A stretch of 58,427 nucleotides of DNA from an uncultured Alphaproteobacteria bacterium (GTDB lineage: Bacteria; Pseudomonadota; Alphaproteobacteria; CAAHEQ01; UBA3637), in assembly GCA_944392585.1 (NCBI GenBank), contig CALXXA010000002.1, positions 1 to 58,427 of the forward strand. The letters are read 5' to 3'. Both the position numbers and the translations under genes were made by a program. Under the pieces are notes generated by a model. That model searched no databases and had not been told where the DNA came from. It was given only the letters and a program-made list of their open reading frames with translations. This document shows, in pieces, positions 30,960 to 49,869 of the stretch (position 1 is its first letter; every line of letters starts with the position of its first letter).

Positions 30960-32006
30960 TTATGTACTTTGTTTTTCTTCCGAACTGATTTCCTCCTCAT
31001 CAAGCAGATCCTGTATAGAAAGACCTTCCGATTCACCTTTTAATCCTTGAAATTGATTCCTCAAAAAATCTTCTAAATCAGAATCTTTTAAAACAAAACC
31101 GTTTTCTTTCTCTTGCTCTTCTTTAAGAGTATCCGCATTTAATAACTCTCCTCCTATAATTAACAAAACAGGACAAACAAATGCCCCCTCTTCCTTCATT
31201 CTCAAAACATGTGCCGCCTTACATAGCTGGTGAAAAGGTGATATAATTTGATCTTCCGCAGAATACCATTTTGGCAGTTCACTTTTTTTAAAAGAAGTAT
31301 CTTCTACAATCCATTCCGTTCCCGGTTTATCAAAAAAATCAAAAAGAAATGCTTTTGTATCCGTTGCTAAAACAATCGGAACAATATAACCCTCTAAAGC
31401 AACATTTTTAAAGACCTCTACCCCATATTGCTGTGCTTCTTTCTCTAAATAATTCATCCTTTCTTGGATACTTGTCTGATCGGAAGAATCCTTCTCTTTC
31501 TGATCCGATGATTTATCTTTAAAAGACTGTACAGGAGACACCGGAACAAAAGATCCACGCCCTGTCATAGGCATCGCTCTTGGTCGGAGCATTTTTCTCT
31601 CAGAAATGAGGGGACTTTTATCTCCCTTTTGCTCTGATTTCCTTTTTATCCTCCATTTAATCCGGCACAATTTATACCAACCCCACGCACAAATAGGAAA
31701 AAATAAAAAGAAACAACTTAATATTGAAAAATCATACAAACTGTTAATTGTCCAATTTTCAAACATAAACGCTTTATATAATTTTATCCAATCCTCAAAA
31801 GGATTGTATAGAACCCATCCTTGCTGTCCTACATGGATAAAAAAAAGATTAAAAGGTGTAACACCATATAACTTACAAACAAAACCGCCGACCAAAATAG
31901 TATAAATAATAAACCATACAATCCCTATGGCCAGTCTTGATATAACTCTCATAAGCACATCCCTCCCATTTTTTTTTAATATATCAGGCGGCTTTAAAGA
32001 GTACAA
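30960..32006 (-). CDS. hypothetical membrane protein
   Basis: 348 aa. About three N-terminal TM helices, a Ser/Asp/Lys-rich linker and an acidic C-terminus. No family recognised. Confidence 0.5.
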   Translation of the reverse strand: MYSLKPPDILKKNGRDVLMRVISRLAIGIVWFIIYTILVGGFVCKLYGVTPFNLFFIHVGQQGWVLYNPFEDWIKLYKAFMFENWTINSLYDFSILSCFFLFFPICAWGWYKLCRIKWRIKRKSEQKGDKSPLISERKMLRPRAMPMTGRGSFVPVSPVQSFKDKSSDQKEKDSSDQTSIQERMNYLEKEAQQYGVEVFKNVALEGYIVPIVLATDTKAFLFDFFDKPGTEWIVEDTSFKKSELPKWYSAEDQIISPFHQLCKAAHVLRMKEEGAFVCPVLLIIGGELLNADTLKEEQEKENGFVLKDSDLEDFLRNQFQGLKGESEGLSIQDLLDEEEISSEEKQST

Positions 32007-32012
32007 GTTCTT

Positions 32013-33791: not shown

Positions 33792-33882
33792 GTTGAGCTC
33801 TCCTAATGTTTAATGTTTTTATATATCAATAAATTAATTTTATCATAAAAAAGATATTTTGTCTATTTCTTTTTGCCCCTTC

Positions 33883-34533
33883 TTATGCTTTTAGATTTTT
33901 TAAAAATTTTGCCAATTTTTCATTCTGTTTTTTTGCCTCTGCCGGAGATAAAATATTTTTTCCCTGGGAATCTGTCGTTATAATCGGAGAAAAATACGCT
34001 GGATTTGTAACTAAAACACTCCACGCCTCTTGCGGATTTTCATCAGCCATATTTAAGTAATTAGAAAGAAGCTTTTGAGCATTCACTGGAAATTTTTCTT
34101 TTTCAATTGCCGCAGCGAAAGAAAGAATAATTTCTTTTCTCTCCTCTGAATAAGAGTTAATTTTATTTTTAAAAGAGAGAAGTTGTTGTTCCAGTTTTTG
34201 CTTTTCTTCTTGAAAGGCTGAAATATCTTTATTGTGAATCGCTTGTACATATTCTATAAGCAATTTTCTCCAAAAATCGTCTTTTTGGTAATGTTTTTCA
34301 ATAGCTGCAATCATAGACGTCGTAGATATTTCTTTGACTTGAATTCCCAATAAGTACCCGATAATTTCCTTTGTATTGAAATCTATTTGAGGCATTAAAA
34401 CTTTTTCTGTTTCTTCCGTCACCTGTGTCGGATCTACTTTAAATGCAGGAGCTCCCTTTAAGACATCCTTATAACGCCATAATTGTGAATAAATCTCTAA
34501 GATTTGATTATTATAAATAGATTGTTCTGACAT
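33883..34533 (-). CDS. hypothetical protein
   Basis: 216 aa, helical/coiled-coil character. It is divergently transcribed from the VirB6-like array. No family recognised. Confidence 0.5.
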   Translation of the reverse strand: MSEQSIYNNQILEIYSQLWRYKDVLKGAPAFKVDPTQVTEETEKVLMPQIDFNTKEIIGYLLGIQVKEISTTSMIAAIEKHYQKDDFWRKLLIEYVQAIHNKDISAFQEEKQKLEQQLLSFKNKINSYSEERKEIILSFAAAIEKEKFPVNAQKLLSNYLNMADENPQEAWSVLVTNPAYFSPIITTDSQGKNILSPAEAKKQNEKLAKFLKNLKA

Positions 34534-34630: not shown

Positions 34631-36334
34631 ATGATGAAGAAATTTTCTTATCCCGTTATTGCTTTTTTTATTGCTCTGCTGATTTTCCCGTCTATTGCAT
34701 TAGCCTTTGAACCTCTCTCCGCGGTACTTTTTACTCTAACAGGGGGTGCTGCCGTAACTCTTTTCGGAGCTATTTTAGTCGTTTATATCAATACAGGAGG
34801 ATCCGGATGTTGGTTTTGTCCGATATTTACCTCTGCCTTTGATACGATTAATGAAATTGCAACGACTCTTTTCCAAAGGTTAAGTATATCTTTTATGCCT
34901 TTCCTTGCGATAGGAGGTGCTCTTTGGATTCTTTTTATTGTCCTACGCTACGTCACAACTTTAAATGTACCTAACACCGGAGCTTTAATTCAATCGCTTT
35001 TTAACGTTCTCTGGAGAGTGGCCGTTGCAAGCATCATTCTAACGACTCCATTCACACTGAGAAGTGCTTCCATATTCGATTATACAATTAATCCTGTTAT
35101 TTCCTTTACCGGAGGTTTATCTTCCGAAATATTAAACGCTGCTGGATTAGGTAACGGATATGTTATAGAACGTAATAAAAATGATGAAGAGAAAAAACAC
35201 GAATTATGTGTACCATCTTCTGTTTCGGATCCTCGTTTTTTCCAAAACACCTTTGGAAATTACTTTAAAAGAAAAGCCTTAAACCAAGATGCTTATGACA
35301 GCATGTTATGTATGCTGAGAAAAATGAGCCTGGAACTTATTTTTGGAATTGGAATGGGATCAACTTTTATAATATCTGCTTTTACAACTAATTCTTCTCT
35401 TTTCTTTATTCCGGATTCTTCTTTGCTCATCTCCGGATTTGTCATATTTTTTAGCTACTTTGCTATGTTCATAATGTTCCCTTTTAAACTTATTGATATT
35501 TTAATTCGATTGGGCTTTGTTATTTCTTTAACCCCATTATTTGTTCTGTTCTGGACATTCCCTATCACTCGAGAATATGTTAAGAGAGGATGGGATATGT
35601 TTATTTCCTCAATGTTTACTCTTATCGCTTTATCTATTTTAATGGTTATTGCCATTCGGCTACTTTCTCAACCGGTGGCGGGAGGGAACATTCAAACAGT
35701 CGTAAAACTTTTAGCAGAAGGGAACGTATCAGAAGCAGGAGCAATCCTTTCAATTAGGGGAACAAGTCTTTTCATTATATTTATAGCAGCTTTCCTGTCT
35801 ATCAGAATTATAAGCATGGCTCCAGCCTTCGGCGCCTTGTTTGGAGGGGCAAGCATAAATAATACGCTTGGTAATGCATTATGGGAAACGACGTCTGGAA
35901 CAATTAAGACAATTTATAAAAACAGAAATATTGGGAGAAATCTCTATTCCTCTTTAAAATTAAGGAAAGGCGGAAACATTAACTCTGCTCCCAATCTAGA
36001 CTCAAAATCATCGAGAAGATTCCCAAGAAGACCCTCAGGAGGATTTGGTCCCGCAGGAACAAGAAATTTAGATACGCCACCGAGTACTCCGCCAACCAAA
36101 CCGTCTAACCTTTCTGAGACGACGCCCCCGAGTGTTTCGCCGACTGTAGGATCGACCATATCACTTACCCCGCCGCCTAGTATCTCTCCTAGTGTTTCTC
36201 CGAGTCTTTATAGTTCGAGAAATGCGGCAAGATCGAGAAAGAACGGGAGACTCCATGAAATGCGCCGCAACAATCTCTCTTCGGCTTCTTTAAGTCATAA
36301 CTTATCCTCTAGAAATAAAAGAAAGAAAAAATAA
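34631..36334 (+). CDS. VirB6/TrbL-like polytopic membrane protein, paralogue A, with Pro/Ser/Thr-rich basic tail
   Basis: 567 aa. FTSAFDTINEIATTLFQRL...GGALWILFIVLRY and LIRLGFVISLTPLFVLFWTFPITREYVKRGW parallel the Agrobacterium VirB6 N-terminal helix/LWI region and the GPLILVGYIFDRTRDIAAKW region as I recall them. CWFC motif at aa 60-63. Confidence 0.6.
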   Translation: MMKKFSYPVIAFFIALLIFPSIALAFEPLSAVLFTLTGGAAVTLFGAILVVYINTGGSGCWFCPIFTSAFDTINEIATTLFQRLSISFMPFLAIGGALWILFIVLRYVTTLNVPNTGALIQSLFNVLWRVAVASIILTTPFTLRSASIFDYTINPVISFTGGLSSEILNAAGLGNGYVIERNKNDEEKKHELCVPSSVSDPRFFQNTFGNYFKRKALNQDAYDSMLCMLRKMSLELIFGIGMGSTFIISAFTTNSSLFFIPDSSLLISGFVIFFSYFAMFIMFPFKLIDILIRLGFVISLTPLFVLFWTFPITREYVKRGWDMFISSMFTLIALSILMVIAIRLLSQPVAGGNIQTVVKLLAEGNVSEAGAILSIRGTSLFIIFIAAFLSIRIISMAPAFGALFGGASINNTLGNALWETTSGTIKTIYKNRNIGRNLYSSLKLRKGGNINSAPNLDSKSSRRFPRRPSGGFGPAGTRNLDTPPSTPPTKPSNLSETTPPSVSPTVGSTISLTPPPSISPSVSPSLYSSRNAARSRKNGRLHEMRRNNLSSASLSHNLSSRNKRKKK

Positions 36335-36345
36335 ACAGAACAACC

Positions 36346-37602
36346 ATGAAAAGCATATTAAACTATATTTTAAATAAAAAAATATTTTATGCCTTTCTTA
36401 TCTTGGTTGGGTGTGTTTTATTATCTGCCTGCGAATTCAAAGATTCCTATAACGCCGAAAAAGTTGCCGATGAAATGAGATCTATTCGCGGATGTTGGTC
36501 TTGTCAGGCATTTAGAACAGTTTACGACGCTGTCGGATCGGTTGCAAAAAGTGCCTACGAAAATATGCGCGTAATTGCTTTAAATCTTTTGGCAATATTT
36601 CTTGCTCTTTGGCTGCTTTTTAAAACTCTTTCTTTTATTACAATTATGAATATTCCGAATTATTCCAAATATTGGGTTGATGTTGCCAGGCGTATCATGC
36701 GTGCCGTTTTTGCCGGAGCCATTTTAATTAACACTCCTGTCATGATAAAATTTATAAACTTTATTGTTGAGCCTGTTTTCTTATTATTTATTTATCTTTC
36801 CATGCAAATAGTAAATGCAAATGATAACGCTTTTGCAGTTGGAGCTCTCATGGATGTCGGCTCTCAATTTCAAACAGACACTCCCTTCCCCGCGGGCGTA
36901 GGGAATCAACTTGAAAATTTGATTTATCGAATTCAGGTTGCTTTGGATATCGGTCGTTCTTTAGGTTTACGTATGATTATTCTCTCTGATTTCTCTGGTA
37001 TTTTTATTGGATTTTTTATTTTGATTATGTTCATTTCCTTATCAATCTTTTTCCCCTATTATTTTATAGATTCTCTTATACGGTTAGGATTTGTCATTAT
37101 TTTGTTTCCTCTTTTTGTTGTCGCCTGGGTATTCCCTAAAACAGTTATCATGTCTTTACTCGCCTGGAAAATTTTCTTTGCAGGTCTTGTCCAAATATTA
37201 ATCGGCTGTATATTTGCGGCTCTTTCTGTTTCTATTATTGAAGCTTATTCTCAATTACGCGGATATAATTTACTTCTAAATCCTATTTATCAAGATGCCA
37301 GCACAGAAACCATTCGTGAAATGACCCGAATGTCTGTATCATCTATATCTTTCCTGGTTCTATGTTTTTATATCAGTTTTCTTGCTATGAGAACTCAAAA
37401 GATAGCCGGATTTTTAACAGATTTACCAGCCACTTCTGTTCTGATTGGGATGATGGAAAAAGTAAAAAGTATCATGAAAGCCCTCCTTTATGCGGCCATT
37501 GCTACTGTTGCCACCTATTTTAGAATTCTTCCCATCGCAGCTGTTATGAAAAAGAAGGCATGGAAAGAGGCAAAAAACGCTATTATAAAAAATAACGGAT
37601 GA
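36346..37602 (+). CDS. VirB6/TrbL-like polytopic membrane protein, paralogue B (lipobox at N-terminus)
   Basis: 418 aa. Lipobox LLSAC, CWSC at aa 50-53, and LALWLLFKTLSF plus LIRLGFVIILFPLFVVAWVFPKT, all collinear with paralogues A and C. Confidence 0.6.
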   Translation: MKSILNYILNKKIFYAFLILVGCVLLSACEFKDSYNAEKVADEMRSIRGCWSCQAFRTVYDAVGSVAKSAYENMRVIALNLLAIFLALWLLFKTLSFITIMNIPNYSKYWVDVARRIMRAVFAGAILINTPVMIKFINFIVEPVFLLFIYLSMQIVNANDNAFAVGALMDVGSQFQTDTPFPAGVGNQLENLIYRIQVALDIGRSLGLRMIILSDFSGIFIGFFILIMFISLSIFFPYYFIDSLIRLGFVIILFPLFVVAWVFPKTVIMSLLAWKIFFAGLVQILIGCIFAALSVSIIEAYSQLRGYNLLLNPIYQDASTETIREMTRMSVSSISFLVLCFYISFLAMRTQKIAGFLTDLPATSVLIGMMEKVKSIMKALLYAAIATVATYFRILPIAAVMKKKAWKEAKNAIIKNNG

Positions 37603-37609
37603 GGGAAAA

Positions 37610-40435
37610 ATGATAAAGAAAACATTCTATCTTCTCATTCTTTTCCTTCTGGTTTTTTTAGCGGCTCATATTAACACTCAGTATTTTCCTTACATTGGAA
37701 TTACCGCTGTTTTTATCATTATCCTGTGCCTTGGATATGCCATTCATAAAACAAAATTATTTTATTATTCTAAAAAAGTTATTGTGTTCTTATTATTTTC
37801 TCTTTCCTTTTTTTACTTAACCTCGGCGTCTCCTGTTCTTGCACAAACATCAGAAACAACTCAGTCTGGGGGAACATTTTTTAAAAGTTTATTTTCTCAA
37901 GATGCAAAGCCATCTTTGGAAGAACAAATTCAAAAAGTTGGAAACGAGTTCCATAAAATATGGCGAATTTTGCCTGAAACCAGGACAGAAGAACAACAAA
38001 AAAAATATGATCAACTCAAGAAGCAATTAGAAAATCTTCTAAAGAAAAAAGCGAAAGAAGATAAAAAAGAAAAAGCAAAAACTCAATGTAAAACACCGCA
38101 TGAACTCTTGAGAGAAGTACAAAACGATTGTTGGTCTTGTGATTTAACTTATATAATTATTGAAGCTATAGATGGCGTCGCCACTTCCTTTTTTAATAAG
38201 GTTCAAGAAAATAACTACGCTTTAATCATCCTGGGTCTTGGATTTGCTTTTTGGTTATTATTCAATATCTTAAAATTTTTCACCTCTTGGCTTTTGACAG
38301 ACTTAGGAGAAGTATGGACAACGATATTTCGAAAACTTATACTCGTTATTTTCGCGGCGGCTCTTCTTATTTCTCCAATACGTCAAGTTTTTGATTGGAT
38401 ATTAACCCCCTTCTTTTCTTTTTCCGCTGCTATCAGTATGGAAATAGCAAACATCTCCACATTTGGGAATAACGTTTCTAAAATTGATGAATCGCTTTCA
38501 AAAACTTTAGAAGTTAACCCTATTGAATGTTCTTACTGCACAGCCATGAAAAAATCAGACGCAGCAGTTCCCTCTCCTAAAAACATAGAGAACGTTGATG
38601 TTCTAAACGCCCCTTCCATTCAAGACAGAGTTTTTTCATCTCAAATAAAAAACTCTATGTTATGTATCGTATGCTCGTTATATCGAACTATCTCGCCTCC
38701 TATTATTATCGGACAATCATTACTATGTTACTCCACTACCGAAGGAGCCTATTCTTTCCCTCCGAAATGGATTATCGGAGTTCCTGTCAGATTACAAATT
38801 CCCAACATGCTGATGTATACAGCGGGAATTGTCATTATTATCGTATTTATTCTTATAACCATTTTATTTCCACTTTTTTTAGTTGATGCCTTCTTTAGAA
38901 TAGGGTATGTTGCGACATTAATGCCCTTTTTGATTGTTGCATACGTTTTTGAATCAACTCGTATATATGCCAAAAATTCATTTAGAATAGTTCTACACGC
39001 TTTAAGCACCTTTTTATTTGTATCGATTATGTTTACTCTGTTGGTTCAAGTATTCTATACATCTTTAAGTTCCGACACACAAGCCATTACAAACGCGCTG
39101 GCCAGCAATGATATAAAAAGCTTATTTAACATATTTGTCCTTAATTCAGGATTTTTCCCTCTTTTAATGTGTATTTTTATTGGTTTTTTAGCCGTAAAAA
39201 TGATGTTTTTAATGGACGAGATAAGTAGTGAGTTAACAGCTATTAACCTGGAGAGCACTGGTGGAATTGGAGCCCTTATATCCGCTATAGATGTTATTAA
39301 ATCCCCAATGCCCGTAGTCAGTGAAATTTATGATGAAACCTGGGGATATGTCGGTTCGAAACGTGTCCCTCTTAACGCTCCGGAACTTCCCAAATATCAC
39401 AGTGCGGAAGCAAAATCTCGCCTTATTCGTTTAAAATCATATCAGAAATTTAACAAATATGCGGACAGCGTTGTTTCCTTCGGAGCCTCTCCGGCTCTTT
39501 CTGTTGAAGAAGAAATTCAAGCCACCGGAAATGTTTTTTCTAATAAAATTTACAATTTTAGAAGATCTATCATTCACAAAATTAATGAAATCGGTAAAAA
39601 TTCCACTGAAGGATTAAAAAGAACTGGGACAGAAATTAATTCTTTATTATCTAATATCTTTGGTCTGAACAATGTTTCTAAGACACCTTATTCCCAAAAC
39701 AAAGATCAAAAAACAAACAAAAAAGTTCAAAATATCTTCAAGCATCAAGGCTCCTCGAATATATTAAATAAAATACTAAACCTTTTTGCTCTCGGTAGTA
39801 ATGTTATCATCCTCCCTTTAATCGTACTAACCAAAACAGTCCAATTTGCTTCTTTACTTTCCGTTAAAGCCTTATTTGGAGTAATTTCCTTTGTGACACG
39901 CAAAGGAACTTATGTAACGCAAAAGACAGCTTCAGCGGCTATATCACTTCCCGGAAGATTAACTGCTTTAGGCCTCCAAAAAGCCGGTAAGTTAATTGCT
40001 CAAAACAAATACTTCACCAAAACAGCCGGAGCTACAAATAGTCTTGTTCTTGGAGCCATCGCCGGGACTGTTTTGGGAATTGCTCATTTCGCCTCCGGAC
40101 TAGGCAGTCTTGTTCCGGGATCCTCTCGTTCCAAAAAAGGTTTTTCTTTGGAAGGGAGAGATTTATCTTCTAAAGAAAATGAACTTCGAGTCGCTCGAAT
40201 TAAATTACAAGATTTGCATGATAAACGCCGCTCTATAGAAGTCAAACGTTATCTCTTGCTCGGTAAAGGGGTCTTATCTGAGAAAGACACTGCGGAATTA
40301 GCGTCAATAGAATCCGATTGGTCTCAAATGCTGAGCGAAATTACTTATTTTGAATCTATTGTAGCTTCTTTAGAATCAGAAGTATCCCACTTAAAAGAAA
40401 ATATTAGAAAACATCACAACGAACAGAAATCTTGA
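37610..40435 (+). CDS. VirB6/TrbL-like polytopic membrane protein, paralogue C, with long N- and C-terminal extensions
   Basis: 941 aa. CWSC at aa 174-177, FAFWLLFNILKF, and FFRIGYVATLMPFLIVAYVFESTRIYAKNSF (compare the VirB6 YIFDRTRDIAAKW region). A C-terminal extension of about 400 aa ends in a coiled coil, an architecture like the enlarged VirB6 paralogues of Rickettsiales. Confidence 0.6.
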   Translation: MIKKTFYLLILFLLVFLAAHINTQYFPYIGITAVFIIILCLGYAIHKTKLFYYSKKVIVFLLFSLSFFYLTSASPVLAQTSETTQSGGTFFKSLFSQDAKPSLEEQIQKVGNEFHKIWRILPETRTEEQQKKYDQLKKQLENLLKKKAKEDKKEKAKTQCKTPHELLREVQNDCWSCDLTYIIIEAIDGVATSFFNKVQENNYALIILGLGFAFWLLFNILKFFTSWLLTDLGEVWTTIFRKLILVIFAAALLISPIRQVFDWILTPFFSFSAAISMEIANISTFGNNVSKIDESLSKTLEVNPIECSYCTAMKKSDAAVPSPKNIENVDVLNAPSIQDRVFSSQIKNSMLCIVCSLYRTISPPIIIGQSLLCYSTTEGAYSFPPKWIIGVPVRLQIPNMLMYTAGIVIIIVFILITILFPLFLVDAFFRIGYVATLMPFLIVAYVFESTRIYAKNSFRIVLHALSTFLFVSIMFTLLVQVFYTSLSSDTQAITNALASNDIKSLFNIFVLNSGFFPLLMCIFIGFLAVKMMFLMDEISSELTAINLESTGGIGALISAIDVIKSPMPVVSEIYDETWGYVGSKRVPLNAPELPKYHSAEAKSRLIRLKSYQKFNKYADSVVSFGASPALSVEEEIQATGNVFSNKIYNFRRSIIHKINEIGKNSTEGLKRTGTEINSLLSNIFGLNNVSKTPYSQNKDQKTNKKVQNIFKHQGSSNILNKILNLFALGSNVIILPLIVLTKTVQFASLLSVKALFGVISFVTRKGTYVTQKTASAAISLPGRLTALGLQKAGKLIAQNKYFTKTAGATNSLVLGAIAGTVLGIAHFASGLGSLVPGSSRSKKGFSLEGRDLSSKENELRVARIKLQDLHDKRRSIEVKRYLLLGKGVLSEKDTAELASIESDWSQMLSEITYFESIVASLESEVSHLKENIRKHHNEQKS

Positions 40436-40591: not shown

Positions 40592-41563
40592 ATGGAAGAA
40601 ATTATTTTCCCTAATCAAATTCGTATGATTCGCCGAACACGCGGTAAAACGATGAAAGAAATTGCCAGCATTTTGAATGTTAGTTTATCTGCCATCAGCA
40701 AAATAGAAAAAGGATATCGACGTATTGATGATAAACAATTGACACAAATAGCTCAATTTCTAGCATGTCCCAAAGAAAGTATTTTTGTTGTGGAACAAAC
40801 CTCTCAACCGGAAGTCTTACAGGCTTGGCAAAGGGAACAAAACCGGCGGAAACAAATTAATGAAAAAAGTGGTTTAAAGACATTAGGTGCCGGATTAAGG
40901 TACATTCGCGGAGAAAAGATGCTTACATTATATGATGTTTCTAAGAAAGCTGGAATGACTCTTTCCGTATATCATAGAATAGAGATCGGACAACGTGAGG
41001 TTACAGAGGAACAATTAAATAATATTGCTCATGCTTTAGGTTATACTCTAGAAACACTCCAGATAAGAATTTATGAGTTGGACATGGCCGGCTCTTTACA
41101 GGAATTTAAAAAAATAGGGAAATCCGGAATTTTCCACCCTAAAGGAGGATATAATGATCTACCCGTTACTTCTCTCGCTATGCATTTCTATCAACGAATC
41201 CCCGTTATAGGAATATGTGAAACAAACGGAACTGTTATCATTCCAGATCAAACATCTCTCCCACAAATAGAACCTAGTTTCATAAATAAAGAATCTCTTT
41301 ATGGTATTCAAATTAATTCAACCTGTCTTGGCTTCTCATTCCCACAACATCGAACCACTCTTATTGCCGATAAAAGCCAACGCCCATCAGATGGAGATAT
41401 AGCTCTATTTCATAAGGGAACACAATCTATTGCGGTTGGAATATGTAAAAAAGAAAATAATTCAGACATCTTTTTTATTCAGAAGAATCCAGATCGCAAA
41501 ATAAAATTATCCAGATCGGAATTGGAAAAATTAGATAAAGTAACTTATATTCAAATTACGTAG
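40592..41563 (+). CDS. XRE-family regulator with two HTH domains and a C-terminal S24/LexA-like domain lacking an obvious catalytic Ser
   Basis: 323 aa. HTH 1 is IRMIRRTRGKTMKEIASILNVSLSAISKIEKGYR. HTH 2 is LRYIRGEKMLTLYDVSKKAGMTLSVYHRIEIGQR. The C-terminal roughly 130 aa begin IPVIGICETNG and end with a beta-rich region like CI/LexA C-domains, but I see no GDSM-type Ser motif. AAGGAGG RBS. Confidence 0.75.
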   Translation: MEEIIFPNQIRMIRRTRGKTMKEIASILNVSLSAISKIEKGYRRIDDKQLTQIAQFLACPKESIFVVEQTSQPEVLQAWQREQNRRKQINEKSGLKTLGAGLRYIRGEKMLTLYDVSKKAGMTLSVYHRIEIGQREVTEEQLNNIAHALGYTLETLQIRIYELDMAGSLQEFKKIGKSGIFHPKGGYNDLPVTSLAMHFYQRIPVIGICETNGTVIIPDQTSLPQIEPSFINKESLYGIQINSTCLGFSFPQHRTTLIADKSQRPSDGDIALFHKGTQSIAVGICKKENNSDIFFIQKNPDRKIKLSRSELEKLDKVTYIQIT

Positions 41564-41586: not shown

Positions 41587-42384
41587 ATGGCTGATATTAA
41601 AACATGGAAAAAAGATTTCCTCGCTGAGCGTAAGAAAAAAGAAGAAGCTCCTTCTTCCATTGCTCAACGTTTTATCAATATCTACCGCCAGCTCCCAATC
41701 CTAGGAGAAGAAGCTGTTAAAAAATATAATGACTTATTAATATCACAAACAACCGCAGAAGTTTTAATCGCTCTAACAAACTTACCAGGCGGGGAAGAAA
41801 TCAGAGAGTATATCAATTTTTTAAAACATAAGAATTTAGAAGAAAGAGAAGAACTGGAATCGAGTCAAAAAGCAAACTTATCTCTCCCCAAAGCAGAAGA
41901 ATTATCTCCTTTGTGGGAAACATTGGGAATAAATTCCGTTTCTCATGTAAATGCACAAACGGCCGTCAATGATGTTGTTCAAACTGTTATTTCGATAGGG
42001 AAAAAAGATATTGAAAACCTAAAAAAACAAATTCTTCCTTTTATTCATCGACAAAATGAAGACGTTTCCAACATCTTAAAGTATATCATCGTTGATTCTG
42101 ATATAGAAAAAATGCAACAGACTCTAACCCAGGCTATAAAGAAAATATCTTCCCTTCAAGAAAATAATGAACGCATTTTGAATTCTTTATTTGAACAAGC
42201 GGAAGTTAATCGTCTTTTTTCTCAAGAAGATATAATTTCCTCAAAGGAGAAACAAGAAAATAATATAAATACGCCTAAAAAATCTTCTCCGTCAAAAGCT
42301 GTTTTTACAGCGACAACAAAAAATAAACGGCTTCATCCATTACCAAAATATTCCGTTGATTTAATAGAGGAGGAAGACAGCTGA
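41587..42384 (+). CDS. hypothetical coiled-coil protein
   Basis: 265 aa, Glu/Lys-rich helical, starting 23 nt after the regulator gene. No family recognised. Confidence 0.5.
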   Translation: MADIKTWKKDFLAERKKKEEAPSSIAQRFINIYRQLPILGEEAVKKYNDLLISQTTAEVLIALTNLPGGEEIREYINFLKHKNLEEREELESSQKANLSLPKAEELSPLWETLGINSVSHVNAQTAVNDVVQTVISIGKKDIENLKKQILPFIHRQNEDVSNILKYIIVDSDIEKMQQTLTQAIKKISSLQENNERILNSLFEQAEVNRLFSQEDIISSKEKQENNINTPKKSSPSKAVFTATTKNKRLHPLPKYSVDLIEEEDS

Positions 42385-42445: not shown

Positions 42446-43951
42446 ATGCCAACCCAGGAACAACTAAAACCACTAATAGAAGCTTTAACAGCATACAAAC
42501 AAGATCAACAAACGTTACAACCTGTCGTAGATACGGCTTTGACTATTTATGGGCAAGATTGGACAACTGCTTTAGCAAACGATCTAGAAAATTTACAAAA
42601 CGTTGACACGACAACCTTAACATTTTTAAAAGAAAAAGCAAATCATGCTATTTATTACTATGGAGCCCTGACTGCTTGGGAAGAGGCTCATCATTACTTA
42701 AATTCAACAAATCCTATTGATCCAAACTTATTAAAAGAACGCTTGCCTATTTTAGAATATTGGTTATCTTTATTCGGAGATGAAGGAAACAAGGTAAATG
42801 GAAAATTAAAGCAACTTTTTGTTAATATTTCTCCTGTACAACCGGGGGAAACTTCTTCACTGTCTTCCGAAACATTGAAGGGGGATTCGGATATCTCTGC
42901 AGACAATCAAGAGACTTCCTCTATTCAACAACTACATAATGACCGATCCGAAGTAGAACCGGTTGCGGAAATGACATCTTCTTTTGAAACCTCTGACAGT
43001 TCTTCCCCCGCCGTGAAATTAGAGGAGAAAGAATCCTTACCCCAAAGCTCCCTTTCGGAGGAGTCCGCTCCTTTTTATCCAGCAAATATTTCCGAAGATA
43101 CTCGTTTAAGTGAAGAAGATATACTAGAAGCAACCGCTTATTCTTCACAACCTGAATTGGGAAATATAGAAAATCAAGAAGAAAATACAAGTTTTCCAGT
43201 CCAAGAAGAACCGGATTCGGAATATCCGCTAGAAGAACAAAATACTTCTTTTAACGAAACAGAACCTTTAGAAGATGAGTTGATAGAAACGTCTGAACAG
43301 CCGACAGTTTCTGTTCCAGAAATCGTTCAGGAAGATCTAAATGTGGTTCCATCGCAAGAGATATCCGAAAAAGGAGATTCTTCAAAGAATTGGGAAATAA
43401 ATAATTATTTAAAAGAAAAAGAACTATATGAACAAGTTGTCGCATGGGTTACGGCGAAATGTATTCGCATGGGAAATATTGAATTAACAGCCTATCCACA
43501 TTATGGTTTTATTGTCGATTTAATGCAATCTTTAAAAGAGAATATCCAAAATTTATTAAGCAACCCACTACTTACCGAGATTATAGAAACACAGTTAAAA
43601 GAAGGTCGTAAAGGATTAGAAGGTTTTTTAAAAGTTCTTGAAACGGAATTAGCACACTTACCCGAGATAGAGAGTCAACCTTCGGATGCGATTATAGAAG
43701 GAATAGATGCGCGCTCTATTCTAGGGCAAATAGACACCAGCAATAAAAAAGAATATTTAGGTCCGGCTCCAGATGGATTTGAGTTGATTGAGGATCCTTA
43801 TGAGAAAAAAGAAGATATCGCCAAAGAAGATCTCTTAAAAGCATATGAAAAAGCCGAAGAAGATACGGGAGATTCAATAAACCATTTAAATATTCTGGAA
43901 GAAGAAACTTCACAATCTCAAGAAACCCAAACAACACCACGGAAAGGATAA
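42446..43951 (+). CDS. hypothetical highly acidic protein
   Basis: 501 aa. The central roughly 200 aa are extremely Glu/Ser/Pro-rich and look disordered, flanked by helical N- and C-terminal domains. No signal peptide seen. Confidence 0.5.
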   Translation: MPTQEQLKPLIEALTAYKQDQQTLQPVVDTALTIYGQDWTTALANDLENLQNVDTTTLTFLKEKANHAIYYYGALTAWEEAHHYLNSTNPIDPNLLKERLPILEYWLSLFGDEGNKVNGKLKQLFVNISPVQPGETSSLSSETLKGDSDISADNQETSSIQQLHNDRSEVEPVAEMTSSFETSDSSSPAVKLEEKESLPQSSLSEESAPFYPANISEDTRLSEEDILEATAYSSQPELGNIENQEENTSFPVQEEPDSEYPLEEQNTSFNETEPLEDELIETSEQPTVSVPEIVQEDLNVVPSQEISEKGDSSKNWEINNYLKEKELYEQVVAWVTAKCIRMGNIELTAYPHYGFIVDLMQSLKENIQNLLSNPLLTEIIETQLKEGRKGLEGFLKVLETELAHLPEIESQPSDAIIEGIDARSILGQIDTSNKKEYLGPAPDGFELIEDPYEKKEDIAKEDLLKAYEKAEEDTGDSINHLNILEEETSQSQETQTTPRKG

Positions 43952-43956
43952 ACAGA

Positions 43957-45450
43957 ATGCATATGAGATATATTTTAATGACTTGCATTTTAGCTTCTAC
44001 AAGTCTCGCTTTATTAGCGTGTCAACATCGAACAGCATCTTTACCTTATATGACAAAGGCTTCTTATATATCCTCTCCGGATTTTTCGAAGTCTGAAACA
44101 GGATTTTTATCGTCTCCGAGTTTAGAAAAACAAAACCCACTTCAAACTTCATCATCTTTTTATACTCCGCAAAGAAATTCTTCATACAAAGGAGTAAATA
44201 ATGCGGGAATAGTTCCTGTTATTAAGGGGAAAGAAGATTCGATCCATCCGCAAGGAGAGAATAATTATTATAGCTCACGACAGACTCGGTCGGCAGAGTT
44301 AACGCCTCAGGATATAAGAACGTCGCCACAAAAGCAGCTGCCTTGCACTCAATCGAAAGTTCCCCCTATGTTGCAAGGACAAACTTCAACGGACATGGTT
44401 AATATAGAAACGCCAATGCGCTGTCGTGTTCCGGAGCCGACATCTCGCATTATTTCAGATATTCCTTTAACACAGGGAGATTTTGAACTGACTCGAGTAG
44501 AAGAAAATGATGCTCTGCCACGTTATGAAGTCAATGGATATACCTTTGATAATCAACCTTTAGATATGGCGATTCAAGTTCTTGTATCCGAAGCAGATAT
44601 AAATGTCTATTCAGATGATGGCTTATTTCCCGATATGTCGGCACAAGATATCAGAGGAGAATTATCAGCTGTTATAGAAGAACTGACAGATTCGGCAGAT
44701 GCCTATGCTCATTATGACGCGAGTAAAAAAAGGTTGTATTTGTCTCACTGGGCTCGGTTTAGATTAAAAGTCCCCGGAGGATATATAGGAATGTATGCAG
44801 TTTTAGACGCCTTAAGAGGAGCTAATATTACGAACGTACAACCTGATTGGGGACAAAATGAACTTTATTTCCGTGTGACGAAATCACAAGAAGCCATTAT
44901 TCGCCGTTTAATTTCTTATTTGAAAGAAGATCCTCGTCTTTTAATGCTTGACATAAACGTTTATAAAGTTTACCCCAAAGGGGGTGCAAATATCTCATGG
45001 AGAAACGTTATTCAAAGCTTCGGAGATTATAAAGTGAATATGTCCATAAACGGTCTGCAAGGACGAATGATTATAACCGATCATCAAGAAGAGCAAAATT
45101 CATTTTTAAATAATCTAAAAGCATACGCTCAAGTTGATTTAGTTTCAAAAGGCGTCGCTGTTATGCCTAACGGATGGAAAGTTCGTTTTGACATAGGTCA
45201 GTGTTCATTTACAAACACTCCAGAAAAAGATTTATCTCTGCTATTACAGAGCAAAATACAAAGCACAGACCGCATAGAATCGAACATTGCGTTAGATACA
45301 GTGAATGGAGAAGTAACATCTTTTTACTCATTTTACAGTATAGATGATGATTTAAATATTGTCGGTATCCCCGGCACAGTTTTCAATCAAAGCACCGTCA
45401 TAGAGTATTTCATTACGATGAAACCTCGGATTATGCGTCTTATAAAATAA
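43957..45450 (+). CDS. outer-membrane lipoprotein with secretin-like N0 and C-terminal domains (type IVb PilN/BfpB/TcpC-style)
   Basis: 497 aa. Lipobox SLALLAC and a disordered Ser/Pro/Gln linker. FDNQPLDMAIQVLVSEADINVYSDD...LSAVIEELTDSADAYAHYDASKKRLYL resembles a secretin N0/NolW-like domain. LMLDINVYKVYPKGGANISW ... FLNNLKAYAQVDLVSKGVAVMPNGWKVRFDIGQ ... NIVGIPGTVFNQSTVIEYFITMKPRIM follows the order of the secretin-domain consensus. Recognition is by eye only. Confidence 0.5.
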   Translation: MHMRYILMTCILASTSLALLACQHRTASLPYMTKASYISSPDFSKSETGFLSSPSLEKQNPLQTSSSFYTPQRNSSYKGVNNAGIVPVIKGKEDSIHPQGENNYYSSRQTRSAELTPQDIRTSPQKQLPCTQSKVPPMLQGQTSTDMVNIETPMRCRVPEPTSRIISDIPLTQGDFELTRVEENDALPRYEVNGYTFDNQPLDMAIQVLVSEADINVYSDDGLFPDMSAQDIRGELSAVIEELTDSADAYAHYDASKKRLYLSHWARFRLKVPGGYIGMYAVLDALRGANITNVQPDWGQNELYFRVTKSQEAIIRRLISYLKEDPRLLMLDINVYKVYPKGGANISWRNVIQSFGDYKVNMSINGLQGRMIITDHQEEQNSFLNNLKAYAQVDLVSKGVAVMPNGWKVRFDIGQCSFTNTPEKDLSLLLQSKIQSTDRIESNIALDTVNGEVTSFYSFYSIDDDLNIVGIPGTVFNQSTVIEYFITMKPRIMRLIK

Positions 45451-45466
45451 AATAAAAGGGAAAGAA

Positions 45467-46138
45467 ATGACTATAGAAAAGAAACCTATATTAAAAGCAC
45501 CGATGCCTCCTTCTGGAATAAAGTCTCCGGCGGAAGCGAAGATATCCGCCTATACTCCAAGCATGAAAACAAATTCATTACCGAATGAAGTTGCATCAGG
45601 GAATCCGGGACAAAATACATCTATGCCACAACCTTCGTATGGATTAAGGGGAGAAGATTCTTCTGGGAATAAGCCGGAGAATTTTTCAAAGAATCAATTG
45701 ACGGAGGAACAACCCTCTGTATCGCCCGGTTCTGGTCTATATGATAATAATTTTGCGGCTCAATTTAATTTACCGCCCTCTATATTGACGACCAAAGCGA
45801 TGAGTTTTATTCTTGCGGGAGTATTCTTTTTTGGGATTATATTTGGAGCGAATGTTTTCGGAACCAGTACAACGACACATGGTCTACAAGGAGTTATTTT
45901 GAATCCTGGAGTTCCAGAAGGAAGGAAGCGCTGTGGGATAGCCGAAAAGACAGAAGGATGTGTTTTATTTATGATGAATGCATCACAACGGGACAGAGAA
46001 GTTCGTTCATTTTATGAACAAGCAGCGGCGATAACGAATGTTCCGGCGTATACCATAGAAATGGGAAATATCACATATGCGTCAACAATTATTCGTCCTG
46101 GCTATTTTGCACAAATAAATATTCCTCCGATACGGTAA
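45467..46138 (+). CDS. bitopic membrane protein (disordered N-terminus, one TM helix, about 90-aa C-terminal domain)
   Basis: 223 aa. Single TM helix MSFILAGVFFFGIIFGANVF. It starts 16 nt after the secretin-like gene and is the last gene of that operon. Confidence 0.45.
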   Translation: MTIEKKPILKAPMPPSGIKSPAEAKISAYTPSMKTNSLPNEVASGNPGQNTSMPQPSYGLRGEDSSGNKPENFSKNQLTEEQPSVSPGSGLYDNNFAAQFNLPPSILTTKAMSFILAGVFFFGIIFGANVFGTSTTTHGLQGVILNPGVPEGRKRCGIAEKTEGCVLFMMNASQRDREVRSFYEQAAAITNVPAYTIEMGNITYASTIIRPGYFAQINIPPIR

Positions 46139-46227: not shown

Positions 46228-46983
46228 TTACTCACTGGTAAATTTGCGACAAAATGCCTTACCTTCTGAAACAATCTTGAAACGCTGCGGATAACATACC
46301 TCGGCGGTTACACCATTACCGCCTGCCATTTCAAATAAGCGTAAACCTTCACACTTCAATAAAGATTCTTTTCTTTTTGACCAATCACACTCTTTTTTCG
46401 CAACATCCGTGTTCCCCAAATTCTTTTCACACGAAGAACTTTCCTGCCCATCGATCTTCTTCTTCTCATAGTAAGAAGGCCTCTCGGCCTCATGAGCACA
46501 CCTACAAAAAGGCAAGTTATATCTCGTTACATTTTGTCCACTTCCTTCACAATCCCAACCATCCTCATTATATCCTTTTATATTAAAACACGTCTCATTC
46601 TCCATAGAAAAATCCGGGGTAGCCGTAAATTTTATCTCTAAATAACCTGTTCCAAGCGGATCGGCCGTTACAATCCCTCCATTATTTATATCGTCAAAGG
46701 GGAACGCAAGCAAATTGTCCCTATTACCTTTCGCCCATTCTTCCACATCATGTTTATAAATCTTATGGATTAAATCTGGAGTTATCTCATCTGCCGTTAA
46801 CAATTTTGCACCAAAAGAATTACACCATGATGCTCTGTTTTTCGCATCTAAACTTATTGTGCTTACATAATAGATATAACCATCTATTTCTGCTGTTTTA
46901 TATGCAAGTACACCATTATTATCTGCAAGTACACCATTATTATAAGAAAAGAACAAAAGTATCAGTAAAAATATTTTTCGCAT
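46228..46983 (-). CDS. secreted Cys-containing protein with lectin-like W-C-x3-G motif
   Basis: 251 aa. Signal peptide MRKIFLLILLFFSY and 10 Cys. IDGYIYYVSTISLDAKNRASWCNSFGAKLLTADE resembles IGGYVEEGKYIRSDIMLNWWSAGAWCLANGKKWASIGD in the C-terminus of the 709-aa pilin-like protein. GGGAGG RBS lies 18 nt after the stop of the 955-aa gene, so the two are probably co-transcribed. Confidence 0.55.
   Translation of the reverse strand: MRKIFLLILLFFSYNNGVLADNNGVLAYKTAEIDGYIYYVSTISLDAKNRASWCNSFGAKLLTADEITPDLIHKIYKHDVEEWAKGNRDNLLAFPFDDINNGGIVTADPLGTGYLEIKFTATPDFSMENETCFNIKGYNEDGWDCEGSGQNVTRYNLPFCRCAHEAERPSYYEKKKIDGQESSSCEKNLGNTDVAKKECDWSKRKESLLKCEGLRLFEMAGGNGVTAEVCYPQRFKIVSEGKAFCRKFTSE
46903..46944 (-). 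repeat. 21-bp tandem duplication in the 5' coding region of the 251-aa gene
   Basis: (a/c)tgcaagtacaccattattat occurs twice in tandem (46903-46923 and 46924-46944). It encodes NNGVLAD-NNGVLAY directly after the signal-peptide hydrophobic core. Confidence 0.9.
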
Positions 46984-47001: not shown

Positions 47002-49869
47002 TTAATAATTATTAGTTTGATTCACACATTTCCCCACAAACTTCATTTGCTTGCCTTCATTTTTCATGATAAATCCCTTTGCCAAAGATGCTATACTACA
47101 TACTTGCCCTTCATTACACTTGGTGTCGGAATCATCTCCTAAAGTTACCTTTGATTCACCATCCTCCTTATCCGTACCAATGGTAAGGTTTTTTAAATTA
47201 TCCTCATTCTCATTCACATCTGCCCACTTTCCTATATAAAGAAGTCCGCTAGAATTTTTAGTCGGGGAATCTTCCCCAAAATACGCTGCAAGAGTCTTGA
47301 CAAGATAACAAAATTTTAGGGGTTTGCTTTTCGCTGCTAGTTGAGCTTTTGCTTTTTCTTCTCCACTCGCCCTTATCGAGAAAGAATTACTCGGGCTTCC
47401 CCATCGTACACATTGTTGTGGGAATGGGTCTTTGAAGTATGTATTAGTCGAGCAATAACATCCTACACCCGGACATTCACTAAAAAAGAACTCTCGATAA
47501 CACTCACCAGCTGCATCAAGACTACATTCTTTTTCTGCTGGATAATACCAGGGTACATTCGTTTCCTTCCCACAAGCTACTCCGATATTGTTTTCATGGT
47601 ACCCTTCTCTATACTGTAAACACGCTGGATAATAACCGCTCTTCTGTGTATTATACACATCGTCGTACGTAGTCTTCTTTAGGTTACTAATTCCGCCATT
47701 AATGGCAGATATACAATAACCCAAATCCGTCGGTATAGTCACGGTTAAAGTACAATCATAATCTCCGGAAGCCTCTTCTAAACAAACTTGACTTTCATCA
47801 TCCCAATAATATCCTGATTTCGTACAACAGCTATCTGTGTTATAATATATCATTTCTTCAGAACAACATTTATTTTCACCAGGTATCCATGTTCCTCCTG
47901 CCTCTATACACCCGTCTTGAGTAGTTATTGACGTACACCCCTCTTTTTCCGACCATTTTCCCCCGGTTTTAGAACAACACGCATTTGTATTCGTCTCAAT
48001 TAATGACGGGGTACAACATTGATTTGACGCACCAATCCAAATTCCTCCCAAAGCAGAACAATCCTCTTCATTATCAGGAATATCAGTATCCAAATCAAAA
48101 CTACATCTCTGATCTAGATTAGGTTTGTCACAACATATAGTCTCTTCTTCTCCAGTATCTGTATCTTGAACAACTTTAGTTATTGTACAACACTCCCCAT
48201 CAACAACACCTGTCGCAGTAGAAGGACAACATGTTCCATTAATAACATTTTTCCTGTCAGCAGGGCAACAAACAATGTCACTATCAACGATTACAGGCTC
48301 TGTATCTTTTTCACAGCACTTAAAATTTTCTTCATTAATAAACGCCCAATTTCTACCCGCCGCCTCACAACATTCTTCTTTCTTCTCAATAGTACTTTCT
48401 TCCGAAAGAGTCTCATAATCTTTCGGACAACAATAGTTGTTCACAGCTTGATTCAGGTTTTGATTCAGGTTACAGCACATATTGTCTTTGCTTGTAAAAA
48501 CATACTCAGAACTGTTGATACAACACATTCCATTAGCATCGTCTGTTTTAACCATTGTCACCTTATCAACCCATACGCCTTTCTCATGCCCATCATAAGC
48601 GTTTTCACAACAAACCTGTGTATTTATGTTGCTCGGATCACAACATTGTTCACCCACCCAATGATAACCATTCGCTTCACAACACATTCCATTAGCATCG
48701 TCTGTTTTAACCATTGTCACCTTATTAACCCAATGATGCTTATTCGCTTCACAACATGCCTTTGAATCCGTTTTCCAAGTTTTATTATCATTTGTACAAC
48801 ACTCTCCATTTTTAATAAACTCACTATGGCAACAAAAAACTTGATTTCCTGATCCTGAAGGCTGATCGCCTTTATTACAACAAATCCCCTCATCATTAAA
48901 CCATTCATACAACCCTATACAACACATTCCATTAGCACCGTCTGTTTTAACCCCATCCTCATCGACCCAATGATAATTATTCGCTTCACAACATGCCTTA
49001 GTATCTGTGTCGTCCTTAGCACAACATGTCCCCTCAGCCCATACGCCTCCGTTTGCTTTACAACATGCCTTAGTATCTGTGTCGGCCTTAGCACAACATA
49101 TTCCATTAGCATCGTCTGTTTCAACCCCATTCTCATCAACCCAAGAACCTGCCTCATCATGCCCATTATAGGTGTTTTCACAACAAACCTGTGTAGTTAT
49201 GTTGTTCGGATAACAACATTGTTCACCCACAGCATAGCTACCCTCCGGACACTCAGAAGGAGGATCAATAGGATCAATAGGAACAATAGGATCAGGATTC
49301 GGTGTCGTAGGATCCGGGAAAAGATCCGAAACCGATGTATCATACGCAAAAACAAATGTATTCCTCTTTCCTTCCGAACACTCTGTAACTGTAAGAGATC
49401 CCGTACACTCTGAAATCCCTTTATCCCCTTGACATAAAAAAACTTCTCTTTTTATCGGAAATTCTTCTCTAACCATCTCTTGCAACCTCTTGCAAGCTCG
49501 ACCGGGAACTTCCTTAACTATAACATAAAATCTATTCCCTTTCCCCTTCTCATGCGCATAGTTAAAACCTCCTTGGTTCTCTTTGAAACCAACCAAATTA
49601 TACTTTTCCCCTGTCTCATAATTCTTCAAAGCCGGATTACTAAACGATTCCACGGCTCTTAAATCCACTTGCTTATATATCTGATTCGCTTGGTGCTTGG
49701 ACATCGCATATGCATATGCAACCAAAAAAAGAATACTCAATATCGCTACAACAGCTAAAACACCTAATATCTCTATAATGCTCCGCCCTTTTTCCGACTT
49801 GACAAAATGTCTCTTAAAATATGATAAATGACGATTCTGTTCCAATTTTTCCTTCAAATGTCTAAGCAT
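47002..49869 (-). CDS. giant Cys-Cys-repeat protein with type IV prepilin-like N-terminus (paralogue 1)
   Basis: 955 aa. A 28-aa basic leader ends in Gly, then RSIIE (Glu at +5) and a roughly 22-aa hydrophobic helix (ILGVLAVVAILSILFLVAYAYA), which is a class III/prepilin signal. There follow a small pilin-like domain, the Pro-rich linker PDPTTPNPDPIVPIDPIDPP, about 490 aa holding 27 CC dipeptides, and a unique roughly 265-aa C-terminal domain. AGGAGG RBS. Confidence 0.7.
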   Translation of the reverse strand: MLRHLKEKLEQNRHLSYFKRHFVKSEKGRSIIEILGVLAVVAILSILFLVAYAYAMSKHQANQIYKQVDLRAVESFSNPALKNYETGEKYNLVGFKENQGGFNYAHEKGKGNRFYVIVKEVPGRACKRLQEMVREEFPIKREVFLCQGDKGISECTGSLTVTECSEGKRNTFVFAYDTSVSDLFPDPTTPNPDPIVPIDPIDPPSECPEGSYAVGEQCCYPNNITTQVCCENTYNGHDEAGSWVDENGVETDDANGICCAKADTDTKACCKANGGVWAEGTCCAKDDTDTKACCEANNYHWVDEDGVKTDGANGMCCIGLYEWFNDEGICCNKGDQPSGSGNQVFCCHSEFIKNGECCTNDNKTWKTDSKACCEANKHHWVNKVTMVKTDDANGMCCEANGYHWVGEQCCDPSNINTQVCCENAYDGHEKGVWVDKVTMVKTDDANGMCCINSSEYVFTSKDNMCCNLNQNLNQAVNNYCCPKDYETLSEESTIEKKEECCEAAGRNWAFINEENFKCCEKDTEPVIVDSDIVCCPADRKNVINGTCCPSTATGVVDGECCTITKVVQDTDTGEEETICCDKPNLDQRCSFDLDTDIPDNEEDCSALGGIWIGASNQCCTPSLIETNTNACCSKTGGKWSEKEGCTSITTQDGCIEAGGTWIPGENKCCSEEMIYYNTDSCCTKSGYYWDDESQVCLEEASGDYDCTLTVTIPTDLGYCISAINGGISNLKKTTYDDVYNTQKSGYYPACLQYREGYHENNIGVACGKETNVPWYYPAEKECSLDAAGECYREFFFSECPGVGCYCSTNTYFKDPFPQQCVRWGSPSNSFSIRASGEEKAKAQLAAKSKPLKFCYLVKTLAAYFGEDSPTKNSSGLLYIGKWADVNENEDNLKNLTIGTDKEDGESKVTLGDDSDTKCNEGQVCSIASLAKGFIMKNEGKQMKFVGKCVNQTNNY
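48125..48838 (-). repeat. segment shared with the second pilin-like gene (copy in paralogue 1)
   Basis: 48125-48565 aligns by eye to 55618-56067 with about ten substitutions, one 3-nt indel and one 6-nt indel. 48725-48838 continues the match to 56068-56180. Paralogue 1 carries one extra unit of about 159 nt in between. Confidence 0.85.

Follow-up and report, generated by a model that had tools for sequence, protein, structure and literature searches.

The stretch analysed here, which we call the window, comprises 58,427 nucleotides of contig CALXXA010000002.1 from an uncultured Alphaproteobacteria bacterium. It belongs to the chromosome of an alphaproteobacterium of low GC content (about 35%) and carries genes for GcrA, EF-Tu/EF-G, ParE/GyrB, PolA and GroEL and for several ankyrin-repeat proteins; the presence of the cell-cycle regulator GcrA (10848-11342, minus strand) supports the alphaproteobacterial assignment. 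Our subject is a pair of adjacent open reading frames (ORFs) on the plus strand, one of 497 amino acids (aa) at 43957-45450, stop codon included, and one of 223 aa that follows after 16 bp at 45467-46138. They had been read, from the letters of the DNA alone, as a divergent lipidated secretin and a bitopic membrane protein, and this original prediction gave exactly these coordinates. Judged by sequence comparison, neither ORF arises by chance, since the first has 40 close homologs and 146 matches to its family profile, and the gene for the bitopic protein follows in essentially every complete locus. The two genes close a core of five that occur in a fixed order: an XRE regulator, a protein of ~265 aa, an acidic protein of ~500 aa, the secretin and the bitopic protein.

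The 497-aa protein begins with a signal peptide (residues 1-22, 43957-44022), read from the sequence, that carries the lipobox LALLA-C22. Its N-terminus is MHMRYILMTCILASTSLALLAC followed by Q, which places Cys22 at the lipobox and Gln at position +2; a Cys at the end of the signal peptide is found in most, not all, members of the secretin family. Next comes a weakly conserved, disordered linker (residues 23-147, 44023-44397) of varying length in the family alignment. In the AlphaFold2 (AF2) model, residues 18-151 are predicted to be disordered (predicted local distance difference test, pLDDT, < 50), and their length and sequence vary between homologs. Both the lipobox and the linker had been seen in the original prediction. 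By its position the linker may be equivalent to the 'LG' bridge of BfpB (PMC12531336). The pre-N0 segment that follows (residues 148-190, 44398-44526) is conserved and contains the motif N-I-E-T-P-x-R-C, which is kept in 63 of the 73 wider family members examined; E151, P153, R155 and C156 are invariant columns in the alignment of the close family.

The folded part of the protein consists of an N0 domain, an N3-type domain and a secretin domain, so that the whole order is lipid anchor, long linker, N0, N3 and secretin domain. The N0 domain (residues 191-263, 44527-44745) was assigned from the AF2 model, Foldseek matches and the alignment to the N-terminal domain of canonical relatives. It has a beta-alpha-beta-beta-alpha-beta-beta topology with pLDDT > 90 and contains FDNQPLDMAIQVLVSEADINVY, the stretch that had been called N0-like; indeed, this stretch falls on N0-homologous columns and is confidently modelled. 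The N3-type ring-building domain (residues 266-324, 44752-44928) is beta-alpha-beta-beta-alpha in the AF2 model and is colinear with the corresponding domain of the relatives and with N3 of pIV. The secretin beta-barrel domain (residues 327-497, 44935-45447) terminates at the last outer-barrel strand, without an S domain, and its extracellular lip region of ~50 aa has the canonical length. The C-terminal motif LNIVGIPGTVFNQSTVIEYFITMKPRIM (...IVGIPG...EYFITMKPRIM), already recognized as secretin-like from the sequence, lies on homologous columns of Pfam-positive secretins and aligns column by column with their ...ILLGGI...SELVLAIKPKIIR end.

A search with hmmscan against PF00263, PF03958 and TIGR02520, which had been proposed as a check, gave no match for the window secretin; the homology therefore emerges only when the family profile itself or the structure is used. 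When the secretin was searched against the PDB by sequence and by profile, the output was likewise limited to low-complexity or coiled-coil noise, and among 36 family members there was no Pfam Secretin match and a single Secretin_N match with E = 0.11. The AF2 model, built with 36 homologs, has pLDDT > 90 across residues 170-497. When it was compared with the PDB by Foldseek, the 23 best matches were all secretins (E = 1.2e-9 to 5e-5), led by PilQ of V. cholerae (1.2e-9) and BfpB (6.4e-9, second best) and including InvG, ExeD, XcpQ, GspD and pIV; the barrel-only entries 6pee, 5tcq and 7ofh were among them. The lower-ranked matches included structures of N0 domains, among them the PilQ N0 domain 4ar0, the N-domains of GspD and XcpQ, and the Dot/Icm chain 7mud_Ad.

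Sequence comparison led to the same result by an independent route. An exhaustive search with the family profile found 146 proteins, and of 46 proteins sampled from the weaker part of these matches (most with E between 1e-14 and 1e-3), 38 carry PF00263. Profile-profile alignment (hhalign) of the family with these PF00263-type relatives had a probability of 99.95 and E = 6e-38 over 339 columns (residues 155-496), colinear from N0 to the last C-terminal strand, and phmmer with a single PF00263 protein already matches family members. The nearest canonical relatives are lipoprotein secretins, with their best sub-threshold scores on the MshL, GspD and PilN (type IVb) models. Fold and sequence bridging are two independent lines that support the interpretation as a divergent lipidated secretin, and we regard it as well supported that the product of ORF 43957-45450 is a true secretin, one that has diverged far from the rest of the superfamily. 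That automated annotation would miss it had been anticipated; the homologs are all without a name or a Pfam domain.

The alignment of the family with the canonical relatives contains two deletions inside the barrel domain, of 19 and 20 columns. In the filamentous phage secretin pIV, Gate 1 lies between the hinge glycines G267 and G297, Gate 2 spans about D321-N335, and a salt bridge connects E185 with R337; 90% of leaky mutations are in the gate region, and a 10-residue deletion in Gate 2 makes pIV leaky and non-functional (PMC8563730). We checked the pIV numbering on the M13 gene IV product and mapped the gates by chained hhalign, from pIV to the canonical relatives (E = 9.5e-10) and from these to the family, because a direct alignment of the family with pIV gave no match. 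Both deletions coincide with the gates. Gate 1 is reduced to the stump GQCSFTNTPEKD (residues 414-425, 45196-45231), which contains the invariant C416; the first hinge is kept as the invariant G414, and a different residue, D425 in the window protein, takes the place of the second hinge Gly. About 19 of roughly 30 Gate 1 residues are absent from the family: in the joint alignment, Gate 1 has 11 residues in 38/38 close members and 9-11 in 30/30 distant representatives, versus about 30 (29-37) in Pfam-positive relatives and pIV. At the site of the missing Gate 2 (residues 447-453, 45295-45315), the 20-column deletion leaves a tight turn between inner-barrel strands, with 6 residues in the family versus 15 in the canonical relatives. 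Both losses are uniform over the 68 family members (38 close and 30 distant), and the strands of the AF2 model agree with them, with short turns at 413-425 and a tight hairpin at 439-448/451-461. In addition, R/K337 (R in 35/38) and E452 (38/38) align with E185 and R337 of pIV, an apparent charge swap which argues that the interface between inner and outer barrel is preserved.

According to these alignments, the family appears to consist of secretins without both channel-closing loops, unlike every characterized secretin. The literature that we searched holds no description of a gate-less secretin or of a secretin within a type IV secretion system (T4SS) locus, and no Pfam or NCBIfam model for such a gate-less family was found. 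Of 73 members, 62 have both C156 of the pre-N0 segment and C416 of the Gate 1 stump, and in most family proteins the mature form has exactly two Cys. This conserved pair, usually the only Cys of the mature protein, suggests a disulfide that probably tethers the N-terminal segment to the inner barrel. A distant member in locus L042 (4958-6133, 391 aa) is without N0 (family-profile positions 165-253 are absent) and retains the pre-N0 E-x-P-x-R-C segment, N3 and the gate-less barrel; 501-like and 223-like genes flank it. To summarize, we consider it secure that these proteins form a new secretin family that has diverged deeply and is marked by a BfpB-like plan, lost gate loops, a Cys pair of its own and fixed gene neighbours.

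The 223-aa protein encoded next to the secretin has a Pro/Gln-rich N-terminus without a signal peptide, a single hydrophobic helix (residues ~106-130) and a conserved C-terminal domain of ~85 aa with two invariant Cys, C156 and C165. This arrangement fits an N-in/C-out topology with a cytoplasmic N-terminus and a periplasmic C-terminal domain. Its gene lies directly 3' of the secretin gene in essentially every complete locus, distant lineages included, and the stop and start codons often overlap. The protein had been likened to BfpC/TcpR. The gene position and the bitopic topology bear this out, and the sequence does not: hhalign of the bitopic family with BfpC gave E = 0.53 over 14 columns, which is no detectable similarity. 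No Pfam, NCBIfam or PHROG match was obtained for the protein, and a PDB profile search returned noise only. A VirB8 identity was also considered and ruled out, as the periplasmic domain of ~85 aa is too small for the VirB8 fold.

The three other core genes lie upstream of the secretin gene on the same strand. The first encodes an XRE-type regulator with two helix-turn-helix (HTH) domains (Pfam HTH_3, E = 6e-22) and a C-terminal domain (40592-41563); this regulator matches PHROG repressor families. The second (41587-42384) encodes a 265-aa protein, predicted to be cytoplasmic and assigned to the core by synteny, for which Pfam, NCBIfam, PHROG and PDB were uninformative. The third (42446-43951) encodes the acidic 501-aa protein, which has neither a signal peptide nor a transmembrane helix, gave no Pfam, NCBIfam, PHROG or PDB match, and consists of conserved N- and C-terminal domains joined by a variable linker. 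Its gene is always immediately upstream of the secretin gene and is often translationally coupled to it. The proteins upstream of the window secretin are without signal peptides. In some genomes the homologs of the 265-aa protein are swollen to 600-880 aa by repetitive low-complexity inserts (L015 2457-5096, L016 1080-3245, L018 6036-8519, L019 5896-7716 and L021 6556-8400), and the acidic linker of the 501-aa protein is likewise very variable in length. A scan of the window for promoters and terminators found them no more often than in shuffled sequence, and the operon boundaries were therefore inferred only from same-strand gaps of 5-156 bp. Rfam had no match in the window.

The module is widespread. 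Forty close secretin homologs, all unnamed and without Pfam domains, were found, and the 31 genomic loci come from metagenome-assembled genomes (MAGs) of uncultured Alphaproteobacteria in the guts of human, yak, sheep, deer, buffalo and rabbit, with two apparently mis-binned contigs as the exceptions. More distant family members occur in other lineages, one high-GC organism included, and these distant lineages keep the triad of 501-like, secretin and 223-like genes, which overlap. Across many host species the module is conserved at 33-100% identity and is flanked by housekeeping genes.

Three tandem genes for polytopic VirB6/TrbL-like paralogs of 567, 418 and 941 aa (34631-40435, plus strand) precede the core in the window. 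They are related to each other by blastp (E = 1e-23 to 1e-12), have 9-12 hydrophobic segments each and share the motifs CWxC and FPxxLxDxxxRxGFV. CWxC follows the first hydrophobic segment; a lipobox-like LLSAC occurs in the 418-aa copy, and the 941-aa copy has a long C-terminal extension of coiled-coil character that recalls the expanded RvhB6 of Rickettsiales. The sole recurrent Pfam match of the paralog set is TrbL (PF04610), found in 9 of 30 members (best E = 2.3e-6) and faintly in L037. The three window paralogs themselves had no match to the TrbL hidden Markov model, a PDB search with the VirB6-like set gave noise only, and a homolog search with the 418-aa paralog found 17 unnamed proteins, none with a Pfam domain. 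Three or four VirB6-like paralogs lie directly upstream of the module, co-directional with it, in 15 of the 25 informative loci, down to a secretin identity of ~37%.

Genes for VirB11, VirB10 and VirB9 abut the module in 7 loci. They are convergent with it and encode VirB11, a giant protein of 2,262-2,455 aa and CagX/VirB9; giant proteins between VirB11 and CagX/VirB9 are found, all on the minus strand, at L036 13050-19838, L037 13076-20443 and L002 20812-21761. The L002 homolog carries a TrbI (VirB10) domain. A giant VirB10-type protein recalls CagY of H. pylori, which suggests that gut Alphaproteobacteria have an enlarged T4SS core of the Cag type. The window also encodes two ankyrin-repeat proteins (2081-3103 and 56891-58201, minus strand; Pfam Ank_2, E = 2e-52 and 1e-79) of a kind typical of the eukaryote-targeting effectors in intracellular or host-associated bacteria with T4SSs. 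A run of three genes without family matches (348, 592 and 216 aa; 30960-34533, minus strand) is oriented divergently to the VirB6-like operon. Because L004, L006, L025, L030 and L032 have the 216-aa gene in synteny, it may belong to the same system. The literature searched on RF32 and T4SS and on secretin and VirB6 held nothing relevant.

A candidate substrate of the secretin is a Cys-rich protein of 955 aa that resembles type IV pilins at its N-terminus, encoded 0.9 kb from the module (47002-49869, minus strand), whose N-terminus reads KG and then RSIIEILGVLAVVAILS, with Glu at +5. The window holds two such genes, the second at 54633-56762, and similar ones lie 1-6 kb downstream of the module in L002 (12970-14520) and L018 (16901-19930), all on the minus strand. 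As stop-to-stop ORFs the members of this pilin-like family measure 517-1,010 aa; they are unannotated and have no N_methyl Pfam match. Their N-termini consist of a long leader ending in G, the sequence RS-x-x-E with an unusual Arg at +1, and a hydrophobic helix, after which comes a conserved ...Y.YAMSKH.AN stretch. 'CC' repeats in these proteins give a weak Galaxin-like Pfam match. Located 18 bp downstream of the 955-aa gene, and probably co-transcribed with it, is a gene for a 251-aa Cys-rich protein with a predicted signal peptide (46228-46983, minus strand), which has an NNGVLA motif duplicated at its N-terminus; it had no family matches and no homolog in the related loci.

The closest canonical relative of the window secretin belongs to a secretin-ATPase-platform cluster with TraG and a lytic transglycosylase (SLT) in L035, which is an R64-like thin-pilus (type IVb) cluster on a conjugative element. 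GGDEF/EAL genes lie just upstream of the secretin gene in L035, and the window has a cyclic-di-GMP protein with GAF, PAS, GGDEF and EAL domains as well (17860-20325, minus strand).

The explanation that we consider best overall, with a probability of about 0.7, is that the secretin and its bitopic partner, within the five-gene module, form a port of type IVb pilus descent beside a T4SS. The secretin would be exported by Sec and lipidated at Cys22, and its long flexible linker would tie it to the outer membrane. The predicted ring, which in secretins is a heat- and detergent-resistant 12-17-mer, would most likely have its N0 and N3 rings stacked in the periplasm and its double-walled beta-barrel embedded in the outer membrane. 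By analogy, the co-transcribed 223-aa protein would be the inner-membrane partner, and its disulfide-containing periplasmic domain may contact the N0 ring in a role like that of GspC/GspB or BfpC/TcpR. The secretin may descend from the secretin of a conjugative-element type IVb pilus and would now stand beside a vir/Cag-like T4SS, as thin pili stand beside conjugative T4SSs. It could be an outer-membrane port that a non-retractile fibre or adhesin of giant pilin-like proteins occupies permanently, and permanent occupancy would explain why the gate is dispensable.

Several observations weigh against this reading or parts of it. As to the secretin itself, the window protein is unmatched by the Pfam Secretin and Secretin_N models and by the NCBIfam secretin models, the PilN family included. 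Alignment of the family with BfpB alone is weak (E = 0.003, probability 10%), and direct alignment with pIV, as mentioned, failed. Against solved secretins the model reaches low template modelling (TM) scores (0.12-0.23), since the extended conformation that a subunit has in the ring is out of reach for a model of the monomer. As to the pilus, the bfp/tcp-like operon context that had been suggested was not found: the locus lacks a pilus ATPase, a platform protein, a prepilin peptidase and an N0-like periplasmic partner, and the first three are missing within 10 kb in ~40 loci and from the window, with one exception, an A24 prepilin peptidase 7 kb away in L002. There is no T2SSF gene in the window or any locus, and the only T2SSE genes seen are 329-aa VirB11-like genes beside VirB10/VirB9. 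Pilin-like genes adjoin the module in only 3 loci, of divergent genomes. Ten loci of another clade, with at least 8 kb of upstream DNA, carry no T4SS gene nearby. Finally, the structure model of the 223-aa protein is unreliable (pLDDT 46), and this reading does not account for the 265-aa and 501-aa proteins, to which no known secretin system has a counterpart.

The main competitor, which we judge unlikely, holds that the gate-less secretin ring was co-opted as an outer-membrane component of the neighbouring vir/Cag-like T4SS and works with the co-expressed VirB6-like paralogs. Its role would be like that of the N0 lipoproteins that decorate T4SS complexes, and a channel always filled by the T4SS would need no gate. 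The T4SS genes are the strongest synteny association of the module, both through the VirB6-like paralogs upstream and through the abutting VirB11/10/9 genes, and the succession of VirB6-like genes, an N0 lipoprotein and a bitopic protein echoes the order virB6-virB7-virB8. N0 domains are established in T4SS lipoproteins such as Xanthomonas VirB7 and Legionella DotD (PMC12531336), and the Foldseek match to 7mud_Ad agrees with this. The ankyrin-repeat proteins of the window suggest an active effector-translocating T4SS. However, the 10 loci just mentioned have the core without a T4SS gene near it, and short contigs of distant lineages show the core only. These T4SSs already have the usual outer-membrane channel in VirB9 and VirB10, no T4SS with a secretin barrel was found in the literature searched, and the resemblance to virB8 fails on the size of the bitopic protein's periplasmic domain.

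Somewhat less probable again is a stand-alone device unrelated to pili or T4SSs, a regulated pore for cargo or uptake. Its cargo might be the two upstream acidic proteins, and the conserved N-terminal segment or the bitopic partner might act as a plug. The five-gene core is the only part conserved in all loci, the high-GC lineage included, the 501-aa gene keeps its position, often translationally coupled, directly before the secretin, and no known machinery gene is universally linked. However, secretins take periplasmic or machine-fed cargo and the two upstream proteins have no signal peptides; the module encodes no energy source, and there is no precedent for such a device.

A pIV-like exit pore of an integrated filamentous prophage, with the XRE/cI-like gene as the phage repressor, is very improbable. 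It would account for pIV among the structural matches (7ofh, E = 4e-5) and for a module that begins with a repressor-like HTH protein, but genes for a Zot/pI ATPase, coat, replication or integrase are lacking, the closest relatives belong to the pilus type rather than to the phage secretins, and the module is conserved across many host species. PHROGs match only the HTH regulator and the flanks are housekeeping genes. This reading is effectively refuted. The least tenable view, that the protein is no secretin and its likeness is convergence or an artefact of a beta-rich AlphaFold model, could appeal to the missing direct Pfam, NCBIfam and PDB sequence matches and to the low TM-scores, but it is refuted by the PF00263-positive profile matches and the colinear alignment with E = 6e-38. 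The phmmer matches from a single PF00263 sequence and the conserved first Gate 1 hinge Gly and C-terminal secretin motifs also speak against it.

What emerges is a widespread natural family that has lost both gate loops, kept the barrel and the N0/N3 rings, and gained a conserved Cys pair. Since gate mutations make pIV leaky and both loops are missing here, the question arises what closes the channel, and how the cell tolerates or plugs such a pore; the family is a natural experiment on gating. If the gate-less secretin is part of the T4SS, this would be the first T4SS that uses a secretin barrel. In more general terms, secretins could then serve as permanently open or occupied ports that are closed by parts other than the gate loops, possibly a disulfide-tethered N-terminal segment or the bitopic partner. 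Because the family is invisible to Pfam and NCBIfam, it is annotated as hypothetical in dozens of MAGs of human and livestock gut Alphaproteobacteria; with the family alignment, one could annotate the module and survey its occurrence in genomes. Its genetic company of VirB6 paralogs, VirB9-11, giant pilin-like Cys-rich proteins and ankyrin proteins points to an uncharacterized host-interaction apparatus in a little-known, uncultured gut lineage.

Among known systems, the secretins of type IVb pili are the closest in plan. BfpB has the plan LG-N0-N3-secretin without an S domain and a closed central gate (PMC12531336). Like BfpB, TcpC and PilN, the window secretin is lipidated, has a long linker before N0 and lacks N1, N2 and the S domain; the absence of the S domain implies that no separate pilotin would be needed, as in BfpB. 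As with BfpB, the next gene downstream encodes a bitopic membrane protein. In contrast to BfpB, TcpC and PilN, however, it has no TIGR02520 or PF00263 match, and it differs from BfpB in the deletion of Gate 1 and Gate 2 and in the family-specific Cys pair. Unlike the BfpB operon, its operon contains no BfpG/TcpQ-like periplasmic partner, ATPase, platform, pilins or peptidase.

The 223-aa protein is comparable to GspC/GspB of type II secretion systems and to BfpC/TcpR of type IVb pili in that it is bitopic with N-in/C-out topology, adjacent to the secretin gene and co-conserved with it, and in that its small periplasmic domain could reach the N0 ring. It has no detectable sequence similarity to BfpC, and it differs from these partners in having a periplasmic domain of only ~85 aa with a conserved Cys pair. 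With pIV of f1/M13 the window secretin shares the minimal N0-N3-secretin plan and a similar size, and the barrel strands, the first Gate 1 hinge Gly and the C-terminal strand align via an intermediate profile. Unlike pIV, with its 30-residue Gate 1 and its Gate 2 loop, both loops are naturally missing, the E185-R337 salt bridge is apparently charge-swapped, and there is no phage context. Finally, like VirB7 of Xanthomonas and DotD of Legionella, the window secretin is an N0 lipoprotein among T4SS genes, and 7mud_Ad matches its N0 domain. VirB7 and DotD have N0 only, whereas the window secretin adds N3 and a complete barrel domain, which is present in no described T4SS component.

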